From UHGV virus genome UHGV-0061378: a DNA stretch of 40,142 nucleotides. One strand, written 5' to 3'. This document shows, one piece after another, positions 1 to 40,142 of the stretch. The position numbers and the translations under genes are program-made. Source of the stretch: a virus. Numbering within the stretch: the first letter of the stretch is position 1; each line of letters opens with the position of its first letter. Under the pieces are notes generated by a model. The model was not told the DNA's origin. It did no database searches and saw only the letters and a program-made list of their open reading frames with translations.

Positions 1-49
1 TGACGGGTAAAAAGTGGATAAAATAATTTTACCCACCGGATTTTTACCC

Positions 50-1207
50 ATGCTCACCGTTAAGCAGATTGAAGCAGCAAAGCCGAAAGAAAAACCATAC
101 CGCCTTCTCGATGGTAATGGCCTGTACCTTTATGTCCCTGTATCAGGGAAAAAGGTATGGCAGCTTCGCTACAAGATTGACGGTAAGGAGAAAATCCTGA
201 CTGTCGGAAAATATCCGCTTATGACTTTGCAGGAAGCAAGGGATAAGGCATGGACTGCGAGGAAAGACATCTCGGTTGGCATCGATCCGGTAAAAGCGAA
301 AAAGGCTTCGTCTAACAACAATTCCTTTAGTGCGATTTACAAGGAATGGTACGAACACAAGAAGCAAGTCTGGTCAGTAGGGTATGCGACTGAACTTGCA
401 AAAATGTTTGATGACGACATTTTACCCATCATCGGCGGTCTTGAGATTCAGGATATTGAGCCGATGCAACTGCTGGAAGTAATCCGCAGATTTGAAGATC
501 GCGGTGCAATGGAGCGAGCCAACAAAGCCCGCAGAAGATGCGGCGAGGTTTTCCGTTACGCTATTGTCACTGGTAGGGCTAAATATAACCCGGCACCTGA
601 CCTTGCTGACGCCATGAAAGGATATCGCAAGAAGAACTTCCCGTTTTTACCTGCCGACCAGATCCCGGCATTCAACAAAGCACTGGCAACATTTTCAGGA
701 AGTATCGTATCGCTCATTGCGACCAAAGTTTTACGCTACACAGCCCTAAGAACGAAAGAGCTTCGCTCCATGCAATGGAAGAACGTCGATTTTGAAAACA
801 GGATTATCACTATCGACGCCAGTGTGATGAAGGGACGCAAGATTCATGTTGTCCCGATGTCGGACCAGGTGGTTGAACTTCTCACTACGCTAAGCTCCAT
901 CACTAAACCAGTATCAGAGTTTGTTTTTGCCGGGCGCAACGATAAGAAGAAGCCAATCTGCGAGAACGCGGTATTGCTTGTGATCAAACAAATCGGCTAT
1001 GAGGGTCTGGAAAGCGGTCACGGATTCAGGCATGAATTCAGCACAATTATGAACGAGCACGAATGGCCTGCTGACGCTATTGAAGTGCAACTGGCACATG
1101 CCAACGGCGGATCTGTGCGTGGAATTTACAACCATGCTCAGTATCTCGATAAGCGCAGAGAAATGATGCAGTGGTGGGCGGACTGGCTTGATGAAAAGGT
1201 TGAGTGA
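50..1207 (+). CDS. int: Tyrosine integrase, P4-like family
   Basis: Track ORF 14..1207 starts at GTG; first ATG at 50 gives N-terminus MLTVKQIEAAKPKEKPYRLLDGNGLYLYV, the typical P4-family integrase start. Sits beside the attP core and arm-type repeats. Confidence 0.85.
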   Translation: MLTVKQIEAAKPKEKPYRLLDGNGLYLYVPVSGKKVWQLRYKIDGKEKILTVGKYPLMTLQEARDKAWTARKDISVGIDPVKAKKASSNNNSFSAIYKEWYEHKKQVWSVGYATELAKMFDDDILPIIGGLEIQDIEPMQLLEVIRRFEDRGAMERANKARRRCGEVFRYAIVTGRAKYNPAPDLADAMKGYRKKNFPFLPADQIPAFNKALATFSGSIVSLIATKVLRYTALRTKELRSMQWKNVDFENRIITIDASVMKGRKIHVVPMSDQVVELLTTLSSITKPVSEFVFAGRNDKKKPICENAVLLVIKQIGYEGLESGHGFRHEFSTIMNEHEWPADAIEVQLAHANGGSVRGIYNHAQYLDKRREMMQWWADWLDEKVE

Positions 1208-1288: not shown

Positions 1289-3235
1289 TTAAAGAATAAT
1301 TCTTTCAACCTTCCAAGTTGCAGATCTACTTCCTGAAATTCCAACTCCATTTGAATCTTTGAGAAGAATTCTAAATGATGTTTCTGTTACCAAATCATAC
1401 GTTACATTTATTGCTGCGCCATCTCCTATCGATATTGAGATAAAATCAGGCACAACTCCAAGTCCGTGAGTTATTATTTGTCCATTTGAATAAACCCCAG
1501 TTCCTATTTTAGTCGTTGCATACCCGGCATTGTTTGCAAGGACAACATTAACCGAATTTGCTCCTAATTTAGCAATCTTCCTATCAGATGAAATCTCTGT
1601 AGATTGTATTGCATTATTTGAAATAACTGCATCTTTTATAGCCCTGAAATCTCCAGGTGTTCCTGATACAGCATTAACAAGTATTGCATACTGCATACTT
1701 CTATCACTTCTTTTATTGCCGAAAGCATTACCGCAAATTGTTGTCCCGGTAAATCCAGATGCTCCCGTGTTATCAAGAAGAATTCCGCACCTATATGTAT
1801 TTGATGTATCAGAAGGCAAACCTATACCTCTTATGGAATTATTGGATACTATATTATTATCTGGCTTGACATTTGCATTATTGCAGTAAATGCGAATTCC
1901 AACATCACAAAATGCATCTAATACATTATCAGATATAACATTACCCGCTCCCCACACATCAATACCCATAAACGAATCAGCACCATCTCCAAAAAATTTA
2001 TTTTGAGTAACTATTGTTCCGCTACCCCTAATCAATATAGCAGGCCTTGGAATGCTTGAAGTCTTTTTGCTATCATTGTAGCCATGATTATCGTTTATAT
2101 GAGATTCCCCCCCCGCACTATCTATGCAGCAATTACACGAATCTATTATATTTTTATTTATCCTTACATAGACAGAATCGTGTTTTATACCTGTAATAAA
2201 ATTTGATATGGAATTTGATACAAAACTAGTTGCCTTACATGGCAATGAAACGCCATGTATAGCGTCCTTAGACGCTCCTATGGCAACAAAATGTATCCCT
2301 GTAACAATTGCTGGGTTCTCATTAGATGATGTGTCACCTATGGTAATAGCAAAAGAATTCTCATCTTCAGGACCATCAATTGTTAATATCGTTTGTGGCG
2401 TATATCCTTGAGATATTTGCGATCCATTTCCTGAACCAAACCCTCTCATACTTACAAAAGATGGGATTCTTAGTTTTTCTGTTACTCTACAGTTGCCCCC
2501 CCAAAAAAATTCCTCTTTAACATGGGCAGCGGCCAGCATGATTGGAATTGTATCATCTTTAACTCCATCAAGCGTCGCTCCATAATTTCTAAGGTCATTG
2601 GTTTCATACCCATTTAAATAACCAATACATCTCCATCCTGTTGAGGTATATCTGGCAAATTTATCATCTGGGGGAACAGTAAAAGGAGGAACTGTCATTT
2701 CTCCTCCAGTTATTTCATTTTCATATACCCAAAACAACCCATCATAATCTTTGATTGCGCATCGGTTGTCACGAATGATATTTTGCTTGTCATAGTTCCC
2801 ACAATATGAAAAACCAGTTGCTAATTTCTGTAGATTTGTTCCTGATGCTGAGTTTATTAATGATGCGCCATTTTCGCTAGTTAATACATTATTTAGAGGG
2901 TCAGGATCATACTTCAGCACATTAGGAAAATAGAACTGCTGCGCACCGTACGCATCATAAACAGCCATAGAATGGCCTTGCACGGTTACGAATTTGGCAA
3001 TCTGTCCGTTATATACCGGATATCCGGCAGCGTTAATGATTATTGGTTGCGAAACAGGAACGTGAGAACCGTCTTCGTTCTCCACATAAACCTGAATCTG
3101 GTTTTCAGGATTTACAGGGTCAGTGTCAATTTTACCGATATAAATTTTGCCATTGGCAACCGCTTTAAAAGAACGCGCCATAGTGAAAAGTTGCGAAGGC
3201 ATCGATACGATCACATTGGCTGTAATGTCTGTCAT
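1289..3235 (-). CDS. Tailspike protein: P22 gp9-type head-binding N-domain fused to a divergent receptor-binding domain
   Basis: 648 aa. First ~110 aa ([46 protein letters not shown]...) match the remembered P22 tailspike N-terminus; the remainder is not P22-like and looks AT-rich by eye. Confidence 0.9.
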
Positions 3236-3292
3236 TTAATTTGCTCCAGATACAATGAATCGCCGCAGCGTGGCCACGGTGAATTTTGGGCA

Positions 3293-3316
3293 TAAAAAAA
3301 CCCAGCCGAAGCTGGG
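3293..3316 (-). terminator. Rho-independent terminator downstream of ant
   Basis: Minus strand reads CCCAGC-TTCG-GCTGGG followed by TTTTTTTAT. Confidence 0.7.
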
Positions 3317-3335
3317 TCGTTGCGTTGGTTATCTG

Positions 3336-4214
3336 TCAGTAGTTATGTACTGAAGGAGGTAATTCTTTATTCTTAAGTCTCATCCATGCGGAAAGATTCG
3401 TTGGTCCGTCTGGCTCATTAATATCAACATCTCGTGTGTGATTGATTAAAACGTCTCTCGCCATTCCGATAACATACGAGAACTCATGACCGTAGTCGTA
3501 GCATCTGCCGGAATAGTTCGATTGAATTTGTTTTAATGCCGGATACAGTTCGCGGAATAATGCCTGTGAACGGTTAGCATAATCCCATAGCCATACAAGG
3601 CTGTTTGCTTCTTTTTCAGAAAGCTCGTTTGCTTTCTTCTCTTGTTTGCCGACAAACTCGCCTTCAAGCACTACCCTGTGGATGTACTCTACGGCCAGCG
3701 GGATTTGTTCAATTGAAAGTTCATCAATGCTGTCAATACCAAAACGCTGATGAACCATATTGTATGCATCGTCATAGCGAAGTCCTTTCTTTCCTACCAG
3801 CATGTTTACTGCATCGCGTAGCGGCGTTCTTTCCTCAACAGTGGTTTTCTTGCCTTTCACATACTCGCCATGTTTGCGAATTGAAGGTAGAACTTCTGCT
3901 GTTACCCACTTGCGGAATTTGTGCGGGACCGAACCTTTATTGACAGCATCGCGGCAGCGCAGAACCAATGTATACATACCTGATTCGCTAACAATGCTTA
4001 GATTCTGCTCACCACCAAGGGTGTAACTTAAAGTTACTCCCTTTTCATCGTCATCAAGTGCAGTAAGCGCCTTGCGTGAGTTAGTCAGGGTTAAAGCATC
4101 ACAAACATCTTTTGCTACAAACCACGGCTCACCGCATTTGTTGATGACGCGGATTTCACTGTCGCCGAATTTGAAGATGGTGAAATCGTTTTGTGCCTTT
4201 GCTATACTTTTCAT
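3336..4214 (-). CDS. ant: Antirepressor with BRO-N type N-terminal domain
   Basis: Sits in the ant position of the immI region; start at internal ATG 4214 ([11 protein letters not shown]...) with AGGAAA SD, not the track start at 4280. Domain call from memory of BRO-N antirepressors. Confidence 0.75.
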
Positions 4215-4282
4215 GTCAATATTTCCTAATCCGATTTGTTGATACCGAAGCCCTGACTGTTCCCGCAGTTGGGGCTTCAACT

Positions 4283-4444
4283 TTACTCGCCAATGCGCCC
4301 TTCCTTCTTAAAGCTTTCCATTACTCTCTGATAAATCTCAGAGTTAACAGACCGACAATTCTCTTCCGCCACCTTGCGTACCAAATCCAATACTTCTTTA
4401 GGCCACCGCAAATTGAACTGCGGCATCTTGCTCATTCCTTTCAT
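4283..4444 (-). CDS. arc: Arc repressor (ribbon-helix-helix)
   Basis: 53 aa [53 protein letters not shown], near-identical to remembered P22 Arc; GAGGTG SD before ATG 4444. Confidence 0.93.
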
Positions 4445-4460
4445 ATTCACCTCACAATAT

Positions 4461-4477
4461 AGGTCCACCGTGGACCT
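4461..4477. promoter_or_regulatory. Mnt operator (17-bp palindrome AGGTCCACCGTGGACCT)
   Basis: Perfect palindrome in the arc/mnt divergent promoter region; matches the remembered P22 Omnt. Confidence 0.8.
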
Positions 4478-4486
4478 ATTGAGAAT

Positions 4487-4507
4487 ATAGTAGAGTGCTT
4501 CTATCAT
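4487..4507. promoter_or_regulatory. Arc operator (ATAGTAGAGTGCTTCTATCAT)
   Basis: Reverse complement ATGATAGAAGCACTCTACTAT matches the remembered P22 arc operator; lies between arc and mnt. Confidence 0.8.
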
Positions 4508-4534
4508 GTCAATACACTAACTTGGAGTGATGGC

Positions 4535-4786
4535 ATGGCTAGAGATGATCCGCACTTTAACTTCCGTATGCCTATGGAAGTAAGGGAGAAATTAAAATTC
4601 AGGGCGGAGGCGAATGGGAGATCAATGAACTCCGAGTTGTTACAAATCGTCCAAGATGCTCTATCAAAACCATCGCCTGTGACTGGATATCGCGACGATG
4701 CAGAACGACTCGCTGATGAGCAGTCCGAACTTGTTAAGAAGATGGTGTTTGATACGCTGAAGGATTTGTACAAAAAACCCACCTGA
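4535..4786 (+). CDS. mnt: Mnt repressor
   Basis: 83 aa MARDDPHFNFRMPMEVREKLKFRAEANGRSMNSELLQIVQDALSKPSP..., near-identical to remembered P22 Mnt. Confidence 0.93.
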   Translation: MARDDPHFNFRMPMEVREKLKFRAEANGRSMNSELLQIVQDALSKPSPVTGYRDDAERLADEQSELVKKMVFDTLKDLYKKPT

Positions 4787-4793
4787 CGGTGGG
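4778..4793. terminator. Bidirectional hairpin terminator between convergent mnt and the 337-aa gene
   Basis: CCCACC-TGAC-GGTGGG; the minus-strand reading is followed by TTTTTTG, the plus-strand reading by a weaker T-rich tail. Confidence 0.6.
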
Positions 4794-4799
4794 TTACTG

Positions 4800-5813
4800 T
4801 TACTTGTCTGAATCATCCAGTTCGTCTGTTTTCACATCCTCAAACCTTGGATGCAGGCGATTCATTTTTGCAATAAAATCTGAATAGTCGTTAGATAGCT
4901 TCATAATCGTAACGGTTGATGACAGATGCTCTCTTAATTTTTGATATCCAATATTTGGCGTCAGCCCCTGAAACAACTTTGTACCTTTTGAGGCCTTTAC
5001 GTTCTGCTTTTTAAGCTCCTCAAGGATGTTTGGTGCCAATCTCTTGTAGACGATATCATTTGTCAAAACGCCAAAATACTGAGGCCGGAAGCGGGGATTT
5101 TCCGGCGGGTATTCTAAGCCCCTTAACCTGAAAAGCTCTTCATAATAATCAGCAGGAAATGTTGTAATATAAGGTTGAATTTCCTTTGCGACAAAGGCCT
5201 CGAGTATTTTGGCGAGTGCATCTTTTTCTCTATCTCGCTGGTACCCCGTCGCTTCATCAACAAGCGCTATTATTCCGACTTTAGCTAATGAGCGCACCAG
5301 AATTTCAGCTTTCTTGGCTGTCTCTAACTGGTTTGGCCTGGTGATAGCGCCTGCCTCTCTTGCCTTTAAATAAACATCGCAGACAAGAGGTATTATGGAT
5401 GCGTCATAACCTTCCTGGACGGAGCCAGTAATCGTCTTGTATTTGACCTTATTGATCACATCCATAACATCTTGATTTATATATTTTTTAAGGTTTGCAG
5501 CATCCATAAAAGCGGGCATATTGATCACCCCCTCTTCTTGAGGTGCTCTACCCCCTCTTTGTGGTCGGCCAAATGCTTTAAAAACAGAAGCTTGTGATAT
5601 GATACGCCGTCCATTTTCGAGAACCGCGACATCTAATTCCGCATCACCGATCTTTAACTTTCCCTCATTCGCAGATACGGGCAATAAAGCTTTTTCTTTT
5701 TTTGCGGCAACAGCCTTTCTTGAGGATTCTTTTCTTTGCTCTGCTGTCATTTTTGCCGCGCGTGCCTTACCGCCTTTGGCCTTCCCACTAACATCATCAT
5801 TTTTCATGAGCAT
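4800..5813 (-). CDS. Hypothetical protein with Lys/Ala-rich N-terminal tail (possibly P63C-domain-like), in the sieA hotspot
   Basis: Long ORF; track start at 5867 is TTG, first ATG at 5813 (MLMKNDDVSGKAKGGKARAAK...). Domain assignment is an unverified recollection. Confidence 0.6.
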   Translation of the reverse strand: MLMKNDDVSGKAKGGKARAAKMTAEQRKESSRKAVAAKKEKALLPVSANEGKLKIGDAELDVAVLENGRRIISQASVFKAFGRPQRGGRAPQEEGVINMPAFMDAANLKKYINQDVMDVINKVKYKTITGSVQEGYDASIIPLVCDVYLKAREAGAITRPNQLETAKKAEILVRSLAKVGIIALVDEATGYQRDREKDALAKILEAFVAKEIQPYITTFPADYYEELFRLRGLEYPPENPRFRPQYFGVLTNDIVYKRLAPNILEELKKQNVKASKGTKLFQGLTPNIGYQKLREHLSSTVTIMKLSNDYSDFIAKMNRLHPRFEDVKTDELDDSDK

Positions 5814-5847
5814 ATCTCGTGTTGTGATTGATAAGTCAATCATACAC

Positions 5848-5865
5848 ATGCACGTTGTAACGTGC
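5848..5865. promoter_or_regulatory. 18-bp perfect palindrome TGCACGTTGTAACGTGCA plus extra half-site (candidate operator)
   Basis: Read directly in the divergent intergenic region between 4800..5813(-) and 5967..6356(+); a third TGCACGT copy lies at 5878..5884. Confidence 0.5.
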
Positions 5866-5966
5866 AATATTTAAATATGCACGTAAATTGCAAATCAGAT
5901 AATGAGGAGACTTTCTCCCCCTTGCACTGACATCATGGTATTCTGCTCAAAACTAAGGAGGTTGGT

Positions 5967-6356
5967 GTGAAGCCATTTCTTGCTGCTATGTTCTTATTCA
6001 TATCTTTTGGGGCTACAGCAGAGTGCTGGGTCGTTGGAGATATGCGCGGAATAAGCTATTCAGAACGAAATAATTTCCATCCGGAAGAAGATGGTTTTAG
6101 TGGAACATTCATCATTAAGACAAGCGGTGAAGATGCCAGCATCACATATTCTGGGACAGATGCGGGCGGCATGGCTTACAAAGCATTGTCTAAAAACTCC
6201 ATCATAGGAATCGGCGCGAATGGCGAAACTCAACGCGTTATCGACTCATGGGTAATACATCCTACTGGAACAGTTTTAATGTCAAAAACCATTTCCGGTT
6301 ATGGAAATATGGATTCAACCAAAGCTTTTGTTGGAAAAGTAAAAAGAAAATGTTAG
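5967..6356 (+). CDS. Small secreted/periplasmic protein with cleavable signal peptide (moron)
   Basis: GTG start 5 nt after a strong SD (TAAGGAGG); N-terminus MKPFLAAMFLFISFGATA-ECWVV looks like a Sec signal; opposite strand to the late operon; AT-rich by eye. Confidence 0.65.
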   Translation: MKPFLAAMFLFISFGATAECWVVGDMRGISYSERNNFHPEEDGFSGTFIIKTSGEDASITYSGTDAGGMAYKALSKNSIIGIGANGETQRVIDSWVIHPTGTVLMSKTISGYGNMDSTKAFVGKVKRKC

Positions 6357-6380: not shown

Positions 6381-8222
6381 TTACTGCTGTGTTGCCTCAG
6401 TAGCAAACAGCGGTCTGATGGCATTCGCAGCGTTATTTAGCGCTCTTTCATAGGCTGGTGTTCCTGCTTTGGTGTTTGCCAAACGAAGAAGCATATTCCT
6501 TGCGGCTTTGGACTCATACAAACGCATCATTGCACCAAAGCCAGCCTCAAGCCCCATTGATACTCCAAGAGTCGCAGTTGCGCCAATCGTCCTTATCCTG
6601 TTGGCTTGTGATTGCCCCGTCTGAGTTACTACATTTGCGGTGTCTGACCTTGCTGTTTGCTGTAGAACTTCATGAAGAGCATCAAGCTCTTTCATGTGCT
6701 TTCCAGAAAAAATAGTGTTGTAAATTTCACCGCCTGACTGAGATTTAAGCTTATTAACTTCAGTGATGAACTTGGCTGGAGAGTCACCGGCCTTTTCCGC
6801 TATTTTGCTGACGTAAGCTGCACGCATAGCATCTTTCCCTTTATCATCCAATGCGCTCCAGATTCGTTTCACGTCAGATGGCTTTCTGCTTAATACAACG
6901 GTATTTATAAGTTCAGGACTGGCTTCACTGCTTGCCTTGTTGAGCTTGTTAGCAATGTTTTTATTAAGCACCTTATTATAAACGTTTGCATAATCGGAGT
7001 TTGCTTTAAGGTATTTTGCTGCGTCTGATGCACCGAGGTTTTTTGCAACTGCGTTACGAAGATCTTTTGACATTGCATTCTCTACCATATTGGTAGCTGC
7101 TTTTGCCTGGTTGGGGAAGACCATAGCATCTCCCTGAACATTGGATCTAAATGCTGTTCTGTGCTGACGCAAGAGATCAAACGTAACATCCAAATCAGTT
7201 GCAGGGTTTGCTAATTCTTCACGTAGGTTACGCAAGGATGTAAGCAAGCTTTGATTGGCAGACGTCCCAAGCCGTTCCTGTCTTGCGATCGCTGTATTCA
7301 GAGCATTCATGGTATTTGTGGTATCAACTGCGGCATTACCCATTTTATTGGTGACGTCATTGATAACAGCGCCAGCGGCATCCTTCCGTCCCCTTAACGT
7401 GGTGGTCAGAGATTTCACCACATCATCAGGGTTGTACTCACCAAAACGGTCAAAATAATTGCTTACCAGCTTACTACGCGTTGCATATTGCTCCGCTCGC
7501 TTTGAGCCTGTCCCGAGCAAAGCCCCCTCAGCATCCTGAGTAAGTCCGCGAGTGAAAGCATTTTTCGGCGGGATAACATCAGATGTCATTGGTGTCACGC
7601 CCATCGATTCTGATGTGGCAATTTTCTTCGCCACTTCTGGCGCAATATCACCTTTTATAGCCGTTATTCCACGCCCTATTCCCTTTGCTGCTGCGGAAAG
7701 AACACCCTGAGCGGCAAGGTTAACTCCGGCATTTTTAGCTGCATTTTGTGCGAAATCACCTTTCTGATTTGCGGCCTCTGCCAGTGATCCAATAGCCATG
7801 CTTCCTGCCGTTCCAACTCCTGGAACTAAATACCCGCCAATTGTTTCTCCAGCTTGAGCGTAGGGGTCTGTCGGTCTGTCTACTGGACGATAGACATCAT
7901 CCAATACTTTTGGCCCACCAAGCCCCTGACTGATTGCATTAATCAGACTTGCGCCACCCTGCAATACGTCAAATGGTATGTTTACCAGACCACGACCAGC
8001 CTGTTCTGCAATTTGCCCTGCACTTTGACCACCAGTGAGCCAATCGCCAGCTTGTTGCATCAATGATGGTTCTTCCCGTGTTGGTGCATTATTGTCCTGA
8101 TTAACTGTTTTTTGCTGAACAGCCTGACCAGCAAAATACTCATCAATGGCGGTGCCAATATCTTCCGTGCTCGTACCATCAGGGAAGGTAAATGTCTTAC
8201 CGTTTGCAGTTACTTTCATCAT
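6381..8222 (-). CDS. Ejection (internal virion) protein, P22 gp16-like
   Basis: 613 aa in the conserved gp7-gp20-gp16 order and size (P22 gp16 about 609 aa); start overlaps the gp20 stop (ATGA). Confidence 0.8.
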
Positions 8223-30070: not shown

Positions 30071-30265
30071 CTATTTGTTTTTCTTGTTGCTTGGGAAAGG
30101 ACGAACTTCCTCTCCAATCACACTGCCATCAGGCTTTACCGTAACCATGATGTTACGGCCTGCCAGAATGGCCTTGCTGATAGCGCACTGGATTACACCA
30201 AAGTCACTGGCTGCTTTAGCCTGTCCATGGATTTTGGCGTAATCGGCAAGTGTCATTCGAATCAT
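30071..30265 (-). CDS. cro: Cro repressor
   Basis: 64 aa [64 protein letters not shown], resembling lambda Cro; GGAGAG SD. Confidence 0.88.
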
Positions 30266-30292
30266 ATGCACTCTCCGTTATTAACCATGAAC

Positions 30293-30365
30293 AAAGAATA
30301 CTACAGGTATTCAAAGCAATCAATACTCAGGGTATTTTTAGTTTAAGTACCTTAGCTATTAGAAT
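30293..30365. promoter_or_regulatory. OR region: two operator palindromes (GAATAC-N5-GTATTC at 30296..30312; AATAC-N5-GTATT at 30322..30336) with pR and pRM
   Basis: Palindromes read directly. Putative pR on minus (-35 TTGATT, 17-nt spacer, -10 TATTCT); putative pRM -10 TAGAAT about 7 nt before the cI ATG, implying a leaderless cI mRNA as in lambda. Confidence 0.7.
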
Positions 30366-30371
30366 TAAGCT

Positions 30372-31088
30372 ATGGAAAATAAAAAATCACTGACGACAGA
30401 ACAGCTCGAAGACGCTAAGCGGCTTAAGGCTTTGTATGAGTCAAAAAAGAAAGAATTGGGAATAACCCAATACTCAATCGCTGATGAACTGGGTATCACC
30501 CAAGGAGCGGTAGGGCATTATCTTAATGGCAGAAACGCGCTAAACGTTGAGGTTGCATCTGGTTTTGCACGATTGTTGCAAGTCTCAATTGCTGATTTTA
30601 GCCAGTCAATTGCTGCCAAGGTTGCAGAACAGGCAGAAAGCCTTAAGAGCGATGCCAACGTAAGGTATGCAGGGGAATACAGAGCAGGAAAGAGGTATCC
30701 GGTGTTAAGCAGTATCCAGGCTGGCTCGTGGTGTGAAGCATGCGAACCATACACCATTAAAGACATAGATGTTTGGCTTGAGTCTGACGCGCATATTCAA
30801 GGTAATGCGTTTTGGCTTAAAGTGGAAGGTGATTCAATGACGGCACCGGTTGGGTTAAGCATTCCAGAGGGAACATTCGTTCTTTTCGATACCGGAAGGG
30901 AGGCGATCAACGGCAGCTTGGTCATAGCAAAACTTTCTGACTCTAACGAAGCAACATTCAAGAAGCTGATAATCGACGGCGGAAATAAATACCTCAAGGG
31001 ACTTAATCCTGCATGGCCTCTCGTGCCAATCAATGGAAACTGCAAGATTATAGGCGTTGCAATTGAGACAAAACTAAGGCTGGTTTGA
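30372..31088 (+). CDS. cI: CI repressor (HTH plus LexA-like S24 peptidase domain)
   Basis: 238 aa; N-terminal HTH (…ELGITQYSIADELGITQGAVGHYLNG…) and C-terminal S24 region (…EGDSM…KL…); divergent from cro. Confidence 0.9.
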   Translation: MENKKSLTTEQLEDAKRLKALYESKKKELGITQYSIADELGITQGAVGHYLNGRNALNVEVASGFARLLQVSIADFSQSIAAKVAEQAESLKSDANVRYAGEYRAGKRYPVLSSIQAGSWCEACEPYTIKDIDVWLESDAHIQGNAFWLKVEGDSMTAPVGLSIPEGTFVLFDTGREAINGSLVIAKLSDSNEATFKKLIIDGGNKYLKGLNPAWPLVPINGNCKIIGVAIETKLRLV

Positions 31089-31105
31089 TCACGCAAGGGG
31101 CGATT

Positions 31106-31474
31106 ATGGTTGGAACCGCTATAGCAAGCTTTTTTGGGATGTTGGCAATCTCGACAATTTACGGCTTAGCGCATGCTTTTATTGCGAAATCTCTATCAGA
31201 AAAAATAAGTCAGGCTTGGGCGCATAGATCAGCTCGTTTCATGATTCTAGTGATCATAGCAATACAAGGGATATCTGCATTTATCCTCTATGGTTCAAGC
31301 TTATACCTGTTGTATCAAGGCGCGACATTTACGCCTTACACCAGTGATTACGGAACGCTATACGATGGTAGTGAAGACATCTCTATGGCTTGGATCGTCT
31401 TTGGTTTATCTATGGCCGTGTCTGTTGTAGCAGACATCATTAAGGTAATTCTCGTCTTAACCTTCGCTGACTAA
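31106..31474 (+). CDS. Small polytopic membrane protein downstream of cI (rexAB position)
   Basis: 122 aa from ATG 31106 (AAGGGG SD), 18 nt after the cI stop with no terminator between; 3-4 hydrophobic segments. Confidence 0.6.
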   Translation: MVGTAIASFFGMLAISTIYGLAHAFIAKSLSEKISQAWAHRSARFMILVIIAIQGISAFILYGSSLYLLYQGATFTPYTSDYGTLYDGSEDISMAWIVFGLSMAVSVVADIIKVILVLTFAD

Positions 31475-39580: not shown

Positions 39581-39605
39581 ATCAAGATATCCAGACCTAC
39601 CATCG

Positions 39606-39628
39606 CCGCATCAATGCGGTTTTTTATT
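39606..39628 (+). terminator. Rho-independent terminator (second of a tandem pair)
   Basis: CCGCA-TCAA-TGCGG followed by TTTTTTATT. Confidence 0.7.
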
Positions 39629-39637
39629 GCCTGATTT

Positions 39638-39653
39638 GCAGGTTCGATTCCCT
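39638..39653 (+). other. tRNA-Arg T-arm-like fragment (TTGCAGGTTCGATTCC)
   Basis: 16-nt match to the T-arm of tRNA-Arg(CCU)/argW as remembered; diverges afterwards and has no acceptor end, so not a functional tRNA. Confidence 0.5.
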
Positions 39654-39670
39654 ATTCGGAGATAGCACTC

Positions 39671-39871
39671 ATGCAACACGAACTACAACCTGATTCACTG
39701 GTTGATTTGAAATTCATCATGGCCGATACTGGCTTTGGTAAAACCTTCATCTATGACCGGATTAAGTCCGGCGACCTGCCAAAAGCCAAAGTTATCCACG
39801 GGCGAGCAAGATGGTTATATCGTGACCATTGTGAATTCAAAAATAAGCTCTTAAGCCGCGCCAATGGGTAA
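39671..39871 (+). CDS. AlpA/Xis-like DNA-binding protein (excisionase/regulator)
   Basis: 66 aa; last gene before the att region, upstream of int on the circular map; resembles AlpA-family proteins. Confidence 0.7.
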   Translation: MQHELQPDSLVDLKFIMADTGFGKTFIYDRIKSGDLPKAKVIHGRARWLYRDHCEFKNKLLSRANG

Positions 39872-39944
39872 AATAGCGGGTAAAATATTTTTCACATCTA
39901 AAAAACACCATTCCAATCAATCCCCTGCCGCGCCAAGTAGATGT

Positions 39945-39959
39945 CTGCAGGGGACACCA
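39945..39959 (+). other. attP core: identity with the 3' end of tRNA-Arg (CTGCAGGGGACACCA)
   Basis: 15-nt match to the argW acceptor 3' end including CCA, as remembered; between alpA/xis and int; flanked by GGGTAAAAA-type arm repeats in both orientations. Confidence 0.65.
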
Positions 39960-40142
39960 TTATTGTGTTTATCCCTAAAACCACGTAAAAACCGTAAATT
40001 ATTAAATTCGCACTAGCAGTGCCGAATAAGGCACACCAGGAACTCGTGGTCTTATTCATTATGAAGTGGTTTTTACCTGTTCTCTTAACCAAGTAATAAA
40101 TGCCTCAATTTTTGGCCACTGCCTGCCCGGTAATGTGGTGAT

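Follow-up and report, generated by a model that had tools for sequence, protein, structure and literature searches.

The window analysed here, that is, the whole 40,142 nt stretch of DNA from virus genome UHGV-0061378, contains the mnt and arc repressor genes, both of their operators and the overlapping Pant and Pmnt promoters, together with an ant gene and a predicted sar antisense RNA. This immI block is placed in the late operon between a gene 16 homologue (6381..8222) and a tailspike gene with a Head_binding domain (1289..3235), as in P22, and the same late-operon site is part of the published definition of the 'ant moron' (PMC2629481). The ant gene (3336..4214) and arc (4283..4444) lie on the minus strand, with arc as the first gene under Pant, and mnt (4535..4786, plus strand) diverges from the arc–ant operon; the interval 3336..4507 given in the preliminary description leaves mnt outside. 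On the 3′ side of ant, the terminator scan identified an intrinsic terminator on the minus strand (3299..3318; an 8-bp stem, GACCCAGC-TTCG-GCTGGGTT, followed by a T run), located within a block that aligns to the P22 segment carrying the annotated ant terminator.

The repressors and their targets closely resemble those of P22, as had been claimed from the sequence. The product of arc is a 53-aa ribbon-helix-helix repressor of Pant and Pmnt (Pfam Arc, E=2e-29; PDB 1ARQ/1PAR, E=2e-29), which is identical to P22 Arc at 50 of 53 residues, the changes being R16K, G30C and A53E. The 83-aa maintenance repressor Mnt (Pfam Arc and Repressor_Mnt; PDB 1MNT, E=1e-45) shares 81 of its 83 residues with P22 Mnt (97.6%) and shows 98.8% identity to the Mnt of epsilon34. 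In the control region between the two genes (4445..4534), 89 of the 90 bases are those of P22, the sole change being T for C at 4460. The 17-bp symmetric Mnt operator O_mnt (AGGTCCACCGTGGACCT, 4461..4477) has the same sequence as the P22 'Mnt protein' protein_bind feature, and the T at 4460 lengthens its palindrome to 19 bp. The 21-bp Arc operator O_arc (4487..4507), the same as the P22 'arc operator' feature, overlaps both promoters, namely Pant (minus strand, 4484..4512; TTGACA-17-TATATT, 11/12 in the promoter scan), which is the same as the annotated P22 promoter, and the divergent Pmnt (plus strand, 4479..4507; TTGAGA-17-TATCAT, 10/12), which is found at the position of the annotated P22 mnt promoter.

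Two of the three Arc substitutions raise the question of whether the circuit is in decay, with Arc crippled by G30C (and A53E) and the element reduced to a mis-regulated remnant. Both G30C and A53E are private to the window's Arc and are absent from all of the other approximately 128 loci examined, and in five close E. coli relatives Arc is one and the same protein (WP_000677939.1), which has G30 and A53. The G30C substitution could impair Arc folding or DNA binding; a literature search on Arc Gly30 returned nothing. On the other hand, the three ORFs are intact, as are all of the promoters, the two operators and sar, the DNA-contacting N-terminal beta-strand of Arc (PQFNLRW) is unaltered, and it is Mnt rather than Arc that holds Pant off in the lysogen, the window's Mnt being the same as that of the close relatives. 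A decaying circuit is hence considered unlikely, and by analogy with P22, Pant is most likely repressed by the window's Mnt and Arc.

The ant gene encodes a 292-aa predicted antirepressor of chimeric build. Translation is assigned to the ATG at 4214..4212, which is preceded by a Shine–Dalgarno sequence, AGGAA, at 4227..4223, 8 nt upstream. A longer, 314-aa ORF with a TTG start (3336..4280) was considered as the true ant and rejected, since the ATG at 4214 aligns with the starts of the P22 and epsilon34 genes and has the AGGAA sequence. The same 879-nt coding sequence with its ATG start is given by RefSeq PGAP in relatives of the window, and the ant start in the Kapi1 record is the upstream TTG, which is 66 nt too far upstream and makes the gene run through the sar hairpin. 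The N-terminal part of the protein contains a Bro-N domain (PF02498) at aa 20–110 (nt 3885..4157; E=5.5e-20, 72.2 bits against a Pfam gathering cut-off of 25.6 bits, covering profile positions 1–96 of 96). BLASTN break-points delimit the swapped module that encodes it to 3852..4198 (minus strand, approximately aa 6–121), a segment for which BLASTN found no DNA match to P22 or epsilon34, and the break at 3851|3852 falls exactly between codons 121 and 122. At the protein level, BLASTP detected no similarity of aa 1–121 to P22 Ant (best E 2.7), and Pfam gave Bro-N instead of P22_AR_N in the window's Ant, P22 Ant itself consisting of P22_AR_N (4.6e-44) and P22_AR_C.

The remainder of the protein (aa 122–292; 3336..3851, minus strand) constitutes a conserved C-terminal module with a P22_AR_C domain at aa 192–264 (nt 3423..3641, E=1.1e-29). 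The DNA of this module is 84% identical to P22 and 90% to epsilon34 (BLASTN), and its 171 aa are 83.6, 87.7 and 98.2% identical to the corresponding parts of the P22, epsilon34 and Kapi1 proteins, respectively; in Ants bearing KilA-N, the module is 92–96% identical. Since this module remains at 84% identity to P22 Ant, only the N-terminal one has been exchanged. The preliminary view of a BRO-N antirepressor in place of P22 Ant was therefore correct for aa 1–121 and has to be amended to a chimera for the rest. The proposed alignment to P22 immI and ant, when run, gave 58% identity and not full-length identity to P22 Ant, and the window's Ant is 99% identical to that of Kapi1.

The N-terminal swap could alter or abolish antirepressor activity, and the Bro-N/P22_AR_C protein might be a DNA-binding or other regulator, carried as exchangeable 'ant moron' cargo under immI control. 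This would fit with the lack of similarity to P22 Ant in the N-terminal 121 aa and with a PDB sequence search that returned solely chance-level syncytin matches, and hence no solved Ant homologue. It would also fit with observations on Kapi1, the phage with the 99% identical Ant, in whose lysogen mnt transcripts were undetected and lysogeny was stable (PMC12922286). Arguing for an antirepressor are the 84% identity of 171 of the 292 residues to the P22 protein, an antirepressor defined by experiment, the best PHROG match (phrog_245, 'anti-repressor Ant'), to which the window's Ant scores 373 bits and P22 Ant itself 307 bits, and the tight three-layer repression, which fits a product dangerous to lysogeny. 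A function other than that of an antirepressor is thus improbable. Since mnt transcripts were undetected in Kapi1 despite stable lysogeny, this Ant may not be controlled in the P22 manner in every case, with the caveat that the arc and mnt genes of Kapi1 differ from those of the window.

The leader of ant and the gap between ant and arc are covered on the opposite strand by a predicted sar antisense RNA of approximately 70 nt (4215..4284, plus strand), complementary to the ant leader and its Shine–Dalgarno sequence. Its segment 4216..4282 matches the Rfam family RF00262 over all of the model (positions 1–68 of 68) with 71.6 bits (E=4e-13), the gathering threshold being 43 bits. The minimum-free-energy fold consists of two hairpins, the same as in P22 sar. 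The first stem-loop (4215..4243) has the anti-Shine–Dalgarno sequence UUCCU in its loop, and its pairing is reflected in the covariation among 18 variants, in which four of the seven pairs change on both sides and the observed score was reached by none of 500 shuffles; the invariance of helix 2 in this set is a consequence of how the set was collected. The second hairpin had been described as GAAGCCC-N18-GGGCTTC at 4248..4279; it is real and lies at 4247..4278 on the plus strand, its stem having 14 bp and its loop 4 nt, rather than 7 bp and N18. It folds with −29.7 kcal/mol (z = −7.3), none of 200 shuffles folding as well, and is identical to the hairpins of epsilon34 and Kapi1 and one loop base off that of P22. 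The 3′ tail of sar, AACUUU, contains no classical U-run; the same is true of P22, though a terminator is annotated there.

Upstream of sar, the promoter scan indicated a Psar-like promoter (4180..4208, plus strand; GTGAAA-17-TATACT with an extended −10 TG) within ant codons 2–12. This candidate, based on a consensus match only, is found at the position of the annotated P22 Psar (L001 2438..2466, offset 1742), and its −10 element, TGCTATACT, is the same in the window and in P22. Homology and the promoter-like site together suggest that sar is transcribed. The function of sar in P22 is given in the BK000583 annotation and summarized elsewhere (PMC2629481, PMC11016777, PMC13397905).

As the hairpin is symmetrical enough to form in both transcripts and sits exactly in the arc–ant gap, it might instead act on the minus-strand Pant transcript, with a role in attenuation or processing between arc and ant rather than in terminating an antisense RNA. 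However, the minus strand after the hairpin reads GGTATCAACAAATC, without a T run, and the terminator scan gave no site there on either strand. Moreover, the sar covariance model fits all 67 nt of the plus-strand segment, stem 1 included, the plus-strand promoter-like site lies upstream of the hairpin at the correct spacing, and the same hairpin is annotated within sar in P22 and epsilon34 and as the sar terminator in BK000583. A minus-strand role of this kind is therefore highly improbable. Judged by its sequence, the hairpin at 4247..4278 belongs to a genuine sar RNA as its terminator stem-loop, in keeping with the earlier suggestion of a possible sar-like terminator.

Taken as a whole, the region is read as a functional-looking immI region in an E. 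coli prophage of the P22-like (Lederbergvirus) type, which most likely operates as in P22, with a probability that we put at roughly 85%. In the lysogen, Mnt bound to O_mnt would keep Pant off, so that no antirepressor would be made, as is the case in P22 biology. Upon infection or loss of Mnt, Pant would become active and both Arc and Ant would be produced, after which Arc bound to O_arc would shut down Pant as well as Pmnt. The approximately 70-nt sar RNA would start at Psar, within the first codons of ant, stop at the 4247..4278 hairpin, and block ant translation by pairing with the ant leader and its Shine–Dalgarno sequence. Ant, in turn, would inactivate a CI/C2-type prophage repressor by binding it non-covalently. 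The potential target in the window is a CI-type repressor with HTH_3 and Peptidase_S24 domains (30372..31088), which is lambda-like and just 40–42% identical to P22 C2 and to Kapi1 CI; this CI would presumably be bound by one of the domains of Ant. The sole departure from P22 is modular, in that Ant aa 1–121 have been exchanged along with the leader of ant, the sar 5′ half and the −35 side of Psar. The exchanged segment stems from another allele of the same cassette, with Bro-N for P22_AR_N, as in coliphage Kapi1.

The same mosaic is common in E. coli prophages. In its entirety, it was found in 44 of 5,426 complete E. coli genomes at 95–99% identity with intact ORFs, and it is also present in IMG/VR contigs. 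Among one-genome-per-species contigs, an exact-pattern scan for the window-type Psar/leader junction gave no match, and a scan for the hairpin gave a single match, in Pectobacterium brasiliense. Behind the identical sar hairpin are found proteins with P22_AR_N and P22_AR_C, Bro-N and P22_AR_C, KilA-N and P22_AR_C, as well as ORF6N proteins. These four N-terminal domain families are combined with many arc-side sequence types, the arc side having been typed by DNA clustering so as to cover non-P22 arc types. Across the sar variants, a −10-like hexamer is kept within ant codons 2–4. The sar cassette turns out to be a conserved joint.

A broader reading, which we regard as evenly balanced between being right and wrong, is that the sar unit would be a cassette for translational control that is portable and at the same time a joint preferred for recombination, and that the M-x-S-(I/L/V)-(A/S/N) start would be a by-product of the antisense promoter and not a requirement of the protein. 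This start is common to otherwise unrelated N-terminal domains. So conceived, the unit would be made up of the −10 element in ant codons 2–5, the leader stem-loop with the Shine–Dalgarno and anti-Shine–Dalgarno sequences, and the invariant terminator hairpin; it would stay in place while exchange affected both of its flanks, the arc/mnt module to one side and the regulated protein's N-terminal domain to the other.

The mosaic is real but ordinary, because the same combination occurs in dozens of E. coli prophages, and the earlier literature already covers the variable 'ant moron' as well as the 'Bro-N domain-swapping network'. What the locus illustrates is that a textbook P22 immI circuit serves unchanged in E. 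coli prophages over a differently built antirepressor, which carries little weight as a discovery. Its value for annotation is more direct, as the sar RNA, the Psar promoter and the ant ATG at 4214 belong on this region. Furthermore, Bro-N, KilA-N and P22_AR_N joined to a near-identical C-terminal module provide a natural domain-swap series for mapping the repressor-binding part of Ant. Finally, the antisense promoter and the RNA structure constrain the first codons and the leader of the gene across recombination events.

Compared with P22 immI (mnt-arc-sar-ant; BK000583, X01916), gene order and position are the same as in the window, and the two operators and both promoters have the same sequence, the 90 bp of the control region containing a single change. 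P22 Ant has 300 aa and begins with P22_AR_N, whereas the 292-aa Ant of the window has Bro-N at aa 1–121. The ant leader and the 5′ half of sar have diverged, stem 1 being GUCAAUA/UGUUGAU in the window and GUUGGU/ACUGAC in P22, and the Psar −35 element is GTGAAA in the former and GTGTTA in the latter. The P22 neighbours sieA/orf59a are replaced in the window by a P63C-domain gene.

The closest published arc–mnt–operator block is that of epsilon34 (EU570103), with 95.8% DNA identity and an Mnt that differs at one residue. In both epsilon34 and the window, a terminator-like hairpin overlaps the mnt end, and sar is annotated in epsilon34, but epsilon34 Ant, unlike that of the window, has a P22_AR_N-type N-terminus and goes with a P22-type 5′ half of sar. 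The reverse holds for Kapi1 (vB_EcoP_Kapi1, MT813197; mBio 2022, PMC8787464; BMC Genomics 2026, PMC12922286), in which ant and the whole sar cassette show 97% DNA identity (window 3222..4284), and whose integrase and much of the remaining genome are also related to those of the window, whereas its Arc and Mnt are only approximately 36% identical and its operator region is unrelated. Kapi1 CI is 93.5% identical to P22 C2, and the CI of the window is lambda-like. The pairings of Ant N-terminal type and immC repressor are thus P22_AR_N with C2 in P22, Bro-N with a C2-like CI in Kapi1 and Bro-N with a lambda-like CI in the window, so that the one does not track the other in these three genomes, a sample too small to draw conclusions from. 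The immI or 'ant moron' region has been described as being in rapid flux, with ten types in sixteen genomes (PMC2629481). Within the Bro-N domain-swapping network, the Ant of the window is one more combination, placed here under P22 immI control, and does not differ in kind.

The ant gene (3336..4214, minus strand; 292 aa), which starts at an ATG at 4214 behind the Shine-Dalgarno sequence AGGAA (4227..4223) and is followed by a minus-strand intrinsic terminator (3318..3299), encodes a chimera. According to Pfam, its product combines a Bro-N domain (aa 20-110, E=5.5e-20) with P22_AR_C (aa 192-264, E=1e-29), whereas P22 Ant consists of P22_AR_N and P22_AR_C. In BLASTN comparisons with P22 (BK000583), window 4199..4796 is 95% identical and 3267..3851 is 84% identical, 3852..4198 has no match, and the break at 3851|3852 corresponds to the junction of ant codons 121 and 122. 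The P22-like block stops just past the sar terminator hairpin in the nucleotide alignment, and the ant leader and 5' half of sar constitute a diverged allele, unlike the P22 sequence. The preliminary description of a Bro-N antirepressor distinct from P22 Ant holds for residues 1-121, for which BLASTP finds nothing similar in P22 Ant (best E 2.7), but not for residues 122-292, which share 83.6% identity with P22 Ant and 87.7% with epsilon34 Ant. The phrog_245 family, "anti-repressor Ant", matches the window Ant with 373 bits vs 307 for P22 Ant.

The control circuit that precedes ant had been noted as essentially P22-identical, and both Pfam and the 90-bp control region (4445..4534), which differs from that of P22 at a single base, agree. 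The 53-aa product of arc (4283..4444, minus strand) is Arc (E=2e-29) and matches the solved P22 protein 1ARQ/1PAR, and the 83-aa product of mnt (4535..4786, plus strand) contains Arc and Repressor_Mnt domains and matches 1MNT. Mnt differs from its P22 counterpart by N54D and T82P, and Arc by R16K, G30C and A53E. In the five closest E. coli relatives, Arc is a single invariant protein (WP_000677939.1) that retains G30 and A53, and neither G30C (codon 30, 4355..4357) nor A53E (codon 53, 4286..4288) occurs in any other of approximately 128 loci with the sar hairpin among the matches listed; these two private changes could be neutral or Arc-weakening. O_arc (4487..4507) is identical in the two phages. 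The differing base, 4460 (T in the window, C in P22), lies just beyond the 17-bp O_mnt core (4461..4477), and the T lengthens the palindrome from 17 to 19 bp (TAGGTCCACCGTGGACCTA). A consensus scan placed Pant at 4512..4484 (minus strand, TTGACA-17-TATATT), Pmnt at 4479..4507 (plus strand, TTGAGA-17-TATCAT) and a Psar-like promoter at 4180..4208 (plus strand, GTGAAA-17-TATACT with an extended TG), all three where BK000583 annotates the corresponding features.

The 68-nt gap between arc and ant contains the only Rfam match in the whole window, sar (RF00262; 4216..4282, plus strand), which covers the full model length with 71.6 bits (gathering score 43, E=4e-13). Two hairpins are predicted for the 70 nt at 4215..4284 (-29.7 kcal/mol, z = -7.3), a fold that none of 200 shuffles equals in stability, and this architecture is common to the P22, epsilon34 and Kapi1 segments. 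A hairpin had been noted here as a possible sar-like terminator; it is present, but its coordinates were one base off and only the outer 7 bp of its stem had been described, as a stem of 14 bp with a 4-nt loop makes up the second hairpin of sar (4247..4278). Its proposed role is corroborated by BK000583, which annotates the same hairpin, differing by a single loop base, as the sar terminator, and by its position within the Rfam segment. The Psar -10 element with its extended TG (TGCTATACT) is the P22 sequence, at equal spacing to an inferred +1 at 4215. On sequence grounds, the hairpin is thus assigned to sar, whose transcription is predicted.

A scan of IMG/VR for the sar terminator hairpin yielded, together with the reference loci, at least 128 hairpin-bearing sequences. 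The N-terminal 115 aa of Ant directly behind the identical hairpin fall into four clusters among the matches listed (122 loci with Ant of at least 115 aa; one representative per cluster confirmed by Pfam): P22_AR_N (at least 82 loci), Bro-N of the window type (at least 34), KilA-N (at least 5) and a second, short Bro-N type (at least 1). The C-terminal module of the KilA-N Ants is 92-96% identical to that of the window, so the swap point near residue 121 has been reused. Among one-per-species genomes, the sole exact hairpin match is in Pectobacterium brasiliense CFBP8736 (NZ_JACDSF010000012.1; 5906..5937 of our locus L131), where it precedes a 223-aa ORF6N-domain protein that has no P22_AR_C match, and the flank shows no evident arc reading frame of the P22 type. 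On the arc side, at least 17 DNA clusters assort freely in their combinations, the window-type Bro-N Ant being paired with at least nine of these types, most commonly the P22 type (at least 16 loci, including the window and five fetched E. coli loci), in each case among the matches listed.

At least five leader/sar-5' alleles were distinguished, all of which keep a 5-7-bp stem 1 with the anti-SD sequence in its loop. When 18 distinct sar variants are aligned, stem 1 pairing is found in 86% of cells, four of the seven pairs are changed on both sides, the covariation score exceeds that of all 500 shuffles, and pairing is lost when the partners are slid; helix 2 is invariant because it served as the search pattern. 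We infer that the modules on either side of the sar cassette are exchanged while the cassette itself is conserved as the joint between them.

The other hairpin-bearing loci (L011-L131) share with ant codons 1-5 (window 4200..4214) an M-x-S-(I/L/V)-(A/S/N) start, which is common to the unrelated N-termini of the P22_AR_N, Bro-N, KilA-N and ORF6N Ants. The opposite strand of these codons carries a TAnnnT -10-like hexamer, usually after TG, at the Psar -10 position. All leader alleles keep this hexamer at codons 2-4 (TATACT, TACACT, TAAGCT or TACAAT), and codon 5 is GCA in most, providing the TG of the extended -10 element. The shared start of unrelated domains may therefore reflect the antisense promoter.

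By analogy with P22 (its GenBank annotation, the summaries in PMC2629481 and PMC11016777, and studies by Susskind, Sauer and McClure), Mnt would hold Pant off in the lysogen by binding O_mnt. Once Pant fires, Arc would build up and shut off both Pant and Pmnt via O_arc, sar pairing with the ant ribosome-binding site would limit translation, and Ant would bind and inactivate the immC repressor. Here, Ant would most likely act on the lambda-like CI at 30372..31088 (238 aa; HTH_3 and Peptidase_S24), which is only 40% identical to P22 C2. The surrounding immC region (30071..31474) is lambda-like, with a Cro-like 66-aa ORF on the strand opposite CI and a 129-aa membrane-like ORF immediately downstream of cI, and resembles neither P22 nor Kapi1 at the DNA level. 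Kapi1 CI, in contrast, is 93.5% identical to P22 C2, and the same Ant type thus occurs with different CI proteins, so the Ant N-terminal type does not track repressor type in these three genomes. P22 Ant reportedly has a broad target range, which this lack of tracking fits, although a sample of three genomes is far too small for any conclusion. No mnt transcripts were detected in lysogens of Kapi1 (PMC12922286), and regulation of this Ant allele elsewhere may therefore differ from that in P22.

The window has the appearance of an entire prophage or phage genome of the Kapi1 kind, judging from its integrase end (left; 1..1207) and xis/att end (right; 39605..39961), both 97% identical to Kapi1. 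As in P22, immI is flanked by the tailspike gene (1289..3235) and a gene 16 homologue (6381..8222), the position termed the "ant moron" in the epsilon34 paper (PMC2629481). The tailspike has a P22 Head_binding domain (aa 1-112) and a receptor-binding part without a match to P22 or Kapi1. The P22 genes sieA and orf59a are replaced by cargo genes in the interval from mnt to the gene 16 homologue: a 355-aa P63C-domain protein (4800..5867, minus strand; phrog_2384, function unknown) and a 129-aa ORF (5967..6356, plus strand) with a hydrophobic, signal-like N-terminal segment. The end of mnt is overlapped by a hairpin (4776..4795) that, given its T run on the minus strand, has the look of a terminator for the P63C gene.

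Close relatives of the locus are numerous. The combination of P22-type arc/mnt with a Bro-N ant was found in 44 of 5,426 complete E. coli genomes (each covering at least 80% of window 3200..4900), the best match being strain EC11 (99.2%, full length). RefSeq names the product "P22AR C-terminal domain-containing protein" or "phage repressor protein/antirepressor Ant" and, as in the window, starts the 879-nt CDS at the conserved ATG, whereas Kapi1_065 (945 nt; 3115..4059 of MT813197) begins at a TTG 66 nt upstream, overlapping arc and spanning the sar hairpin in a record without a sar feature. Coliphage Kapi1 shares the ant and sar cassette (3222..4284) at 97% identity and has an Ant 99% identical to that of the window, whereas the arc, mnt and operator sequences differ (Arc and Mnt approximately 36% identical). 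The Kapi1 mnt-arc-ant locus has been described as "similar" to that of P22 but "not identical" (PMC12922286), and the ant moron is reported to be in rapid flux, sixteen genomes containing ten types (PMC2629481). The earlier observation is confirmed and its interpretation supported, and the window element adds one more example to a well-known and well-populated system rather than being new.
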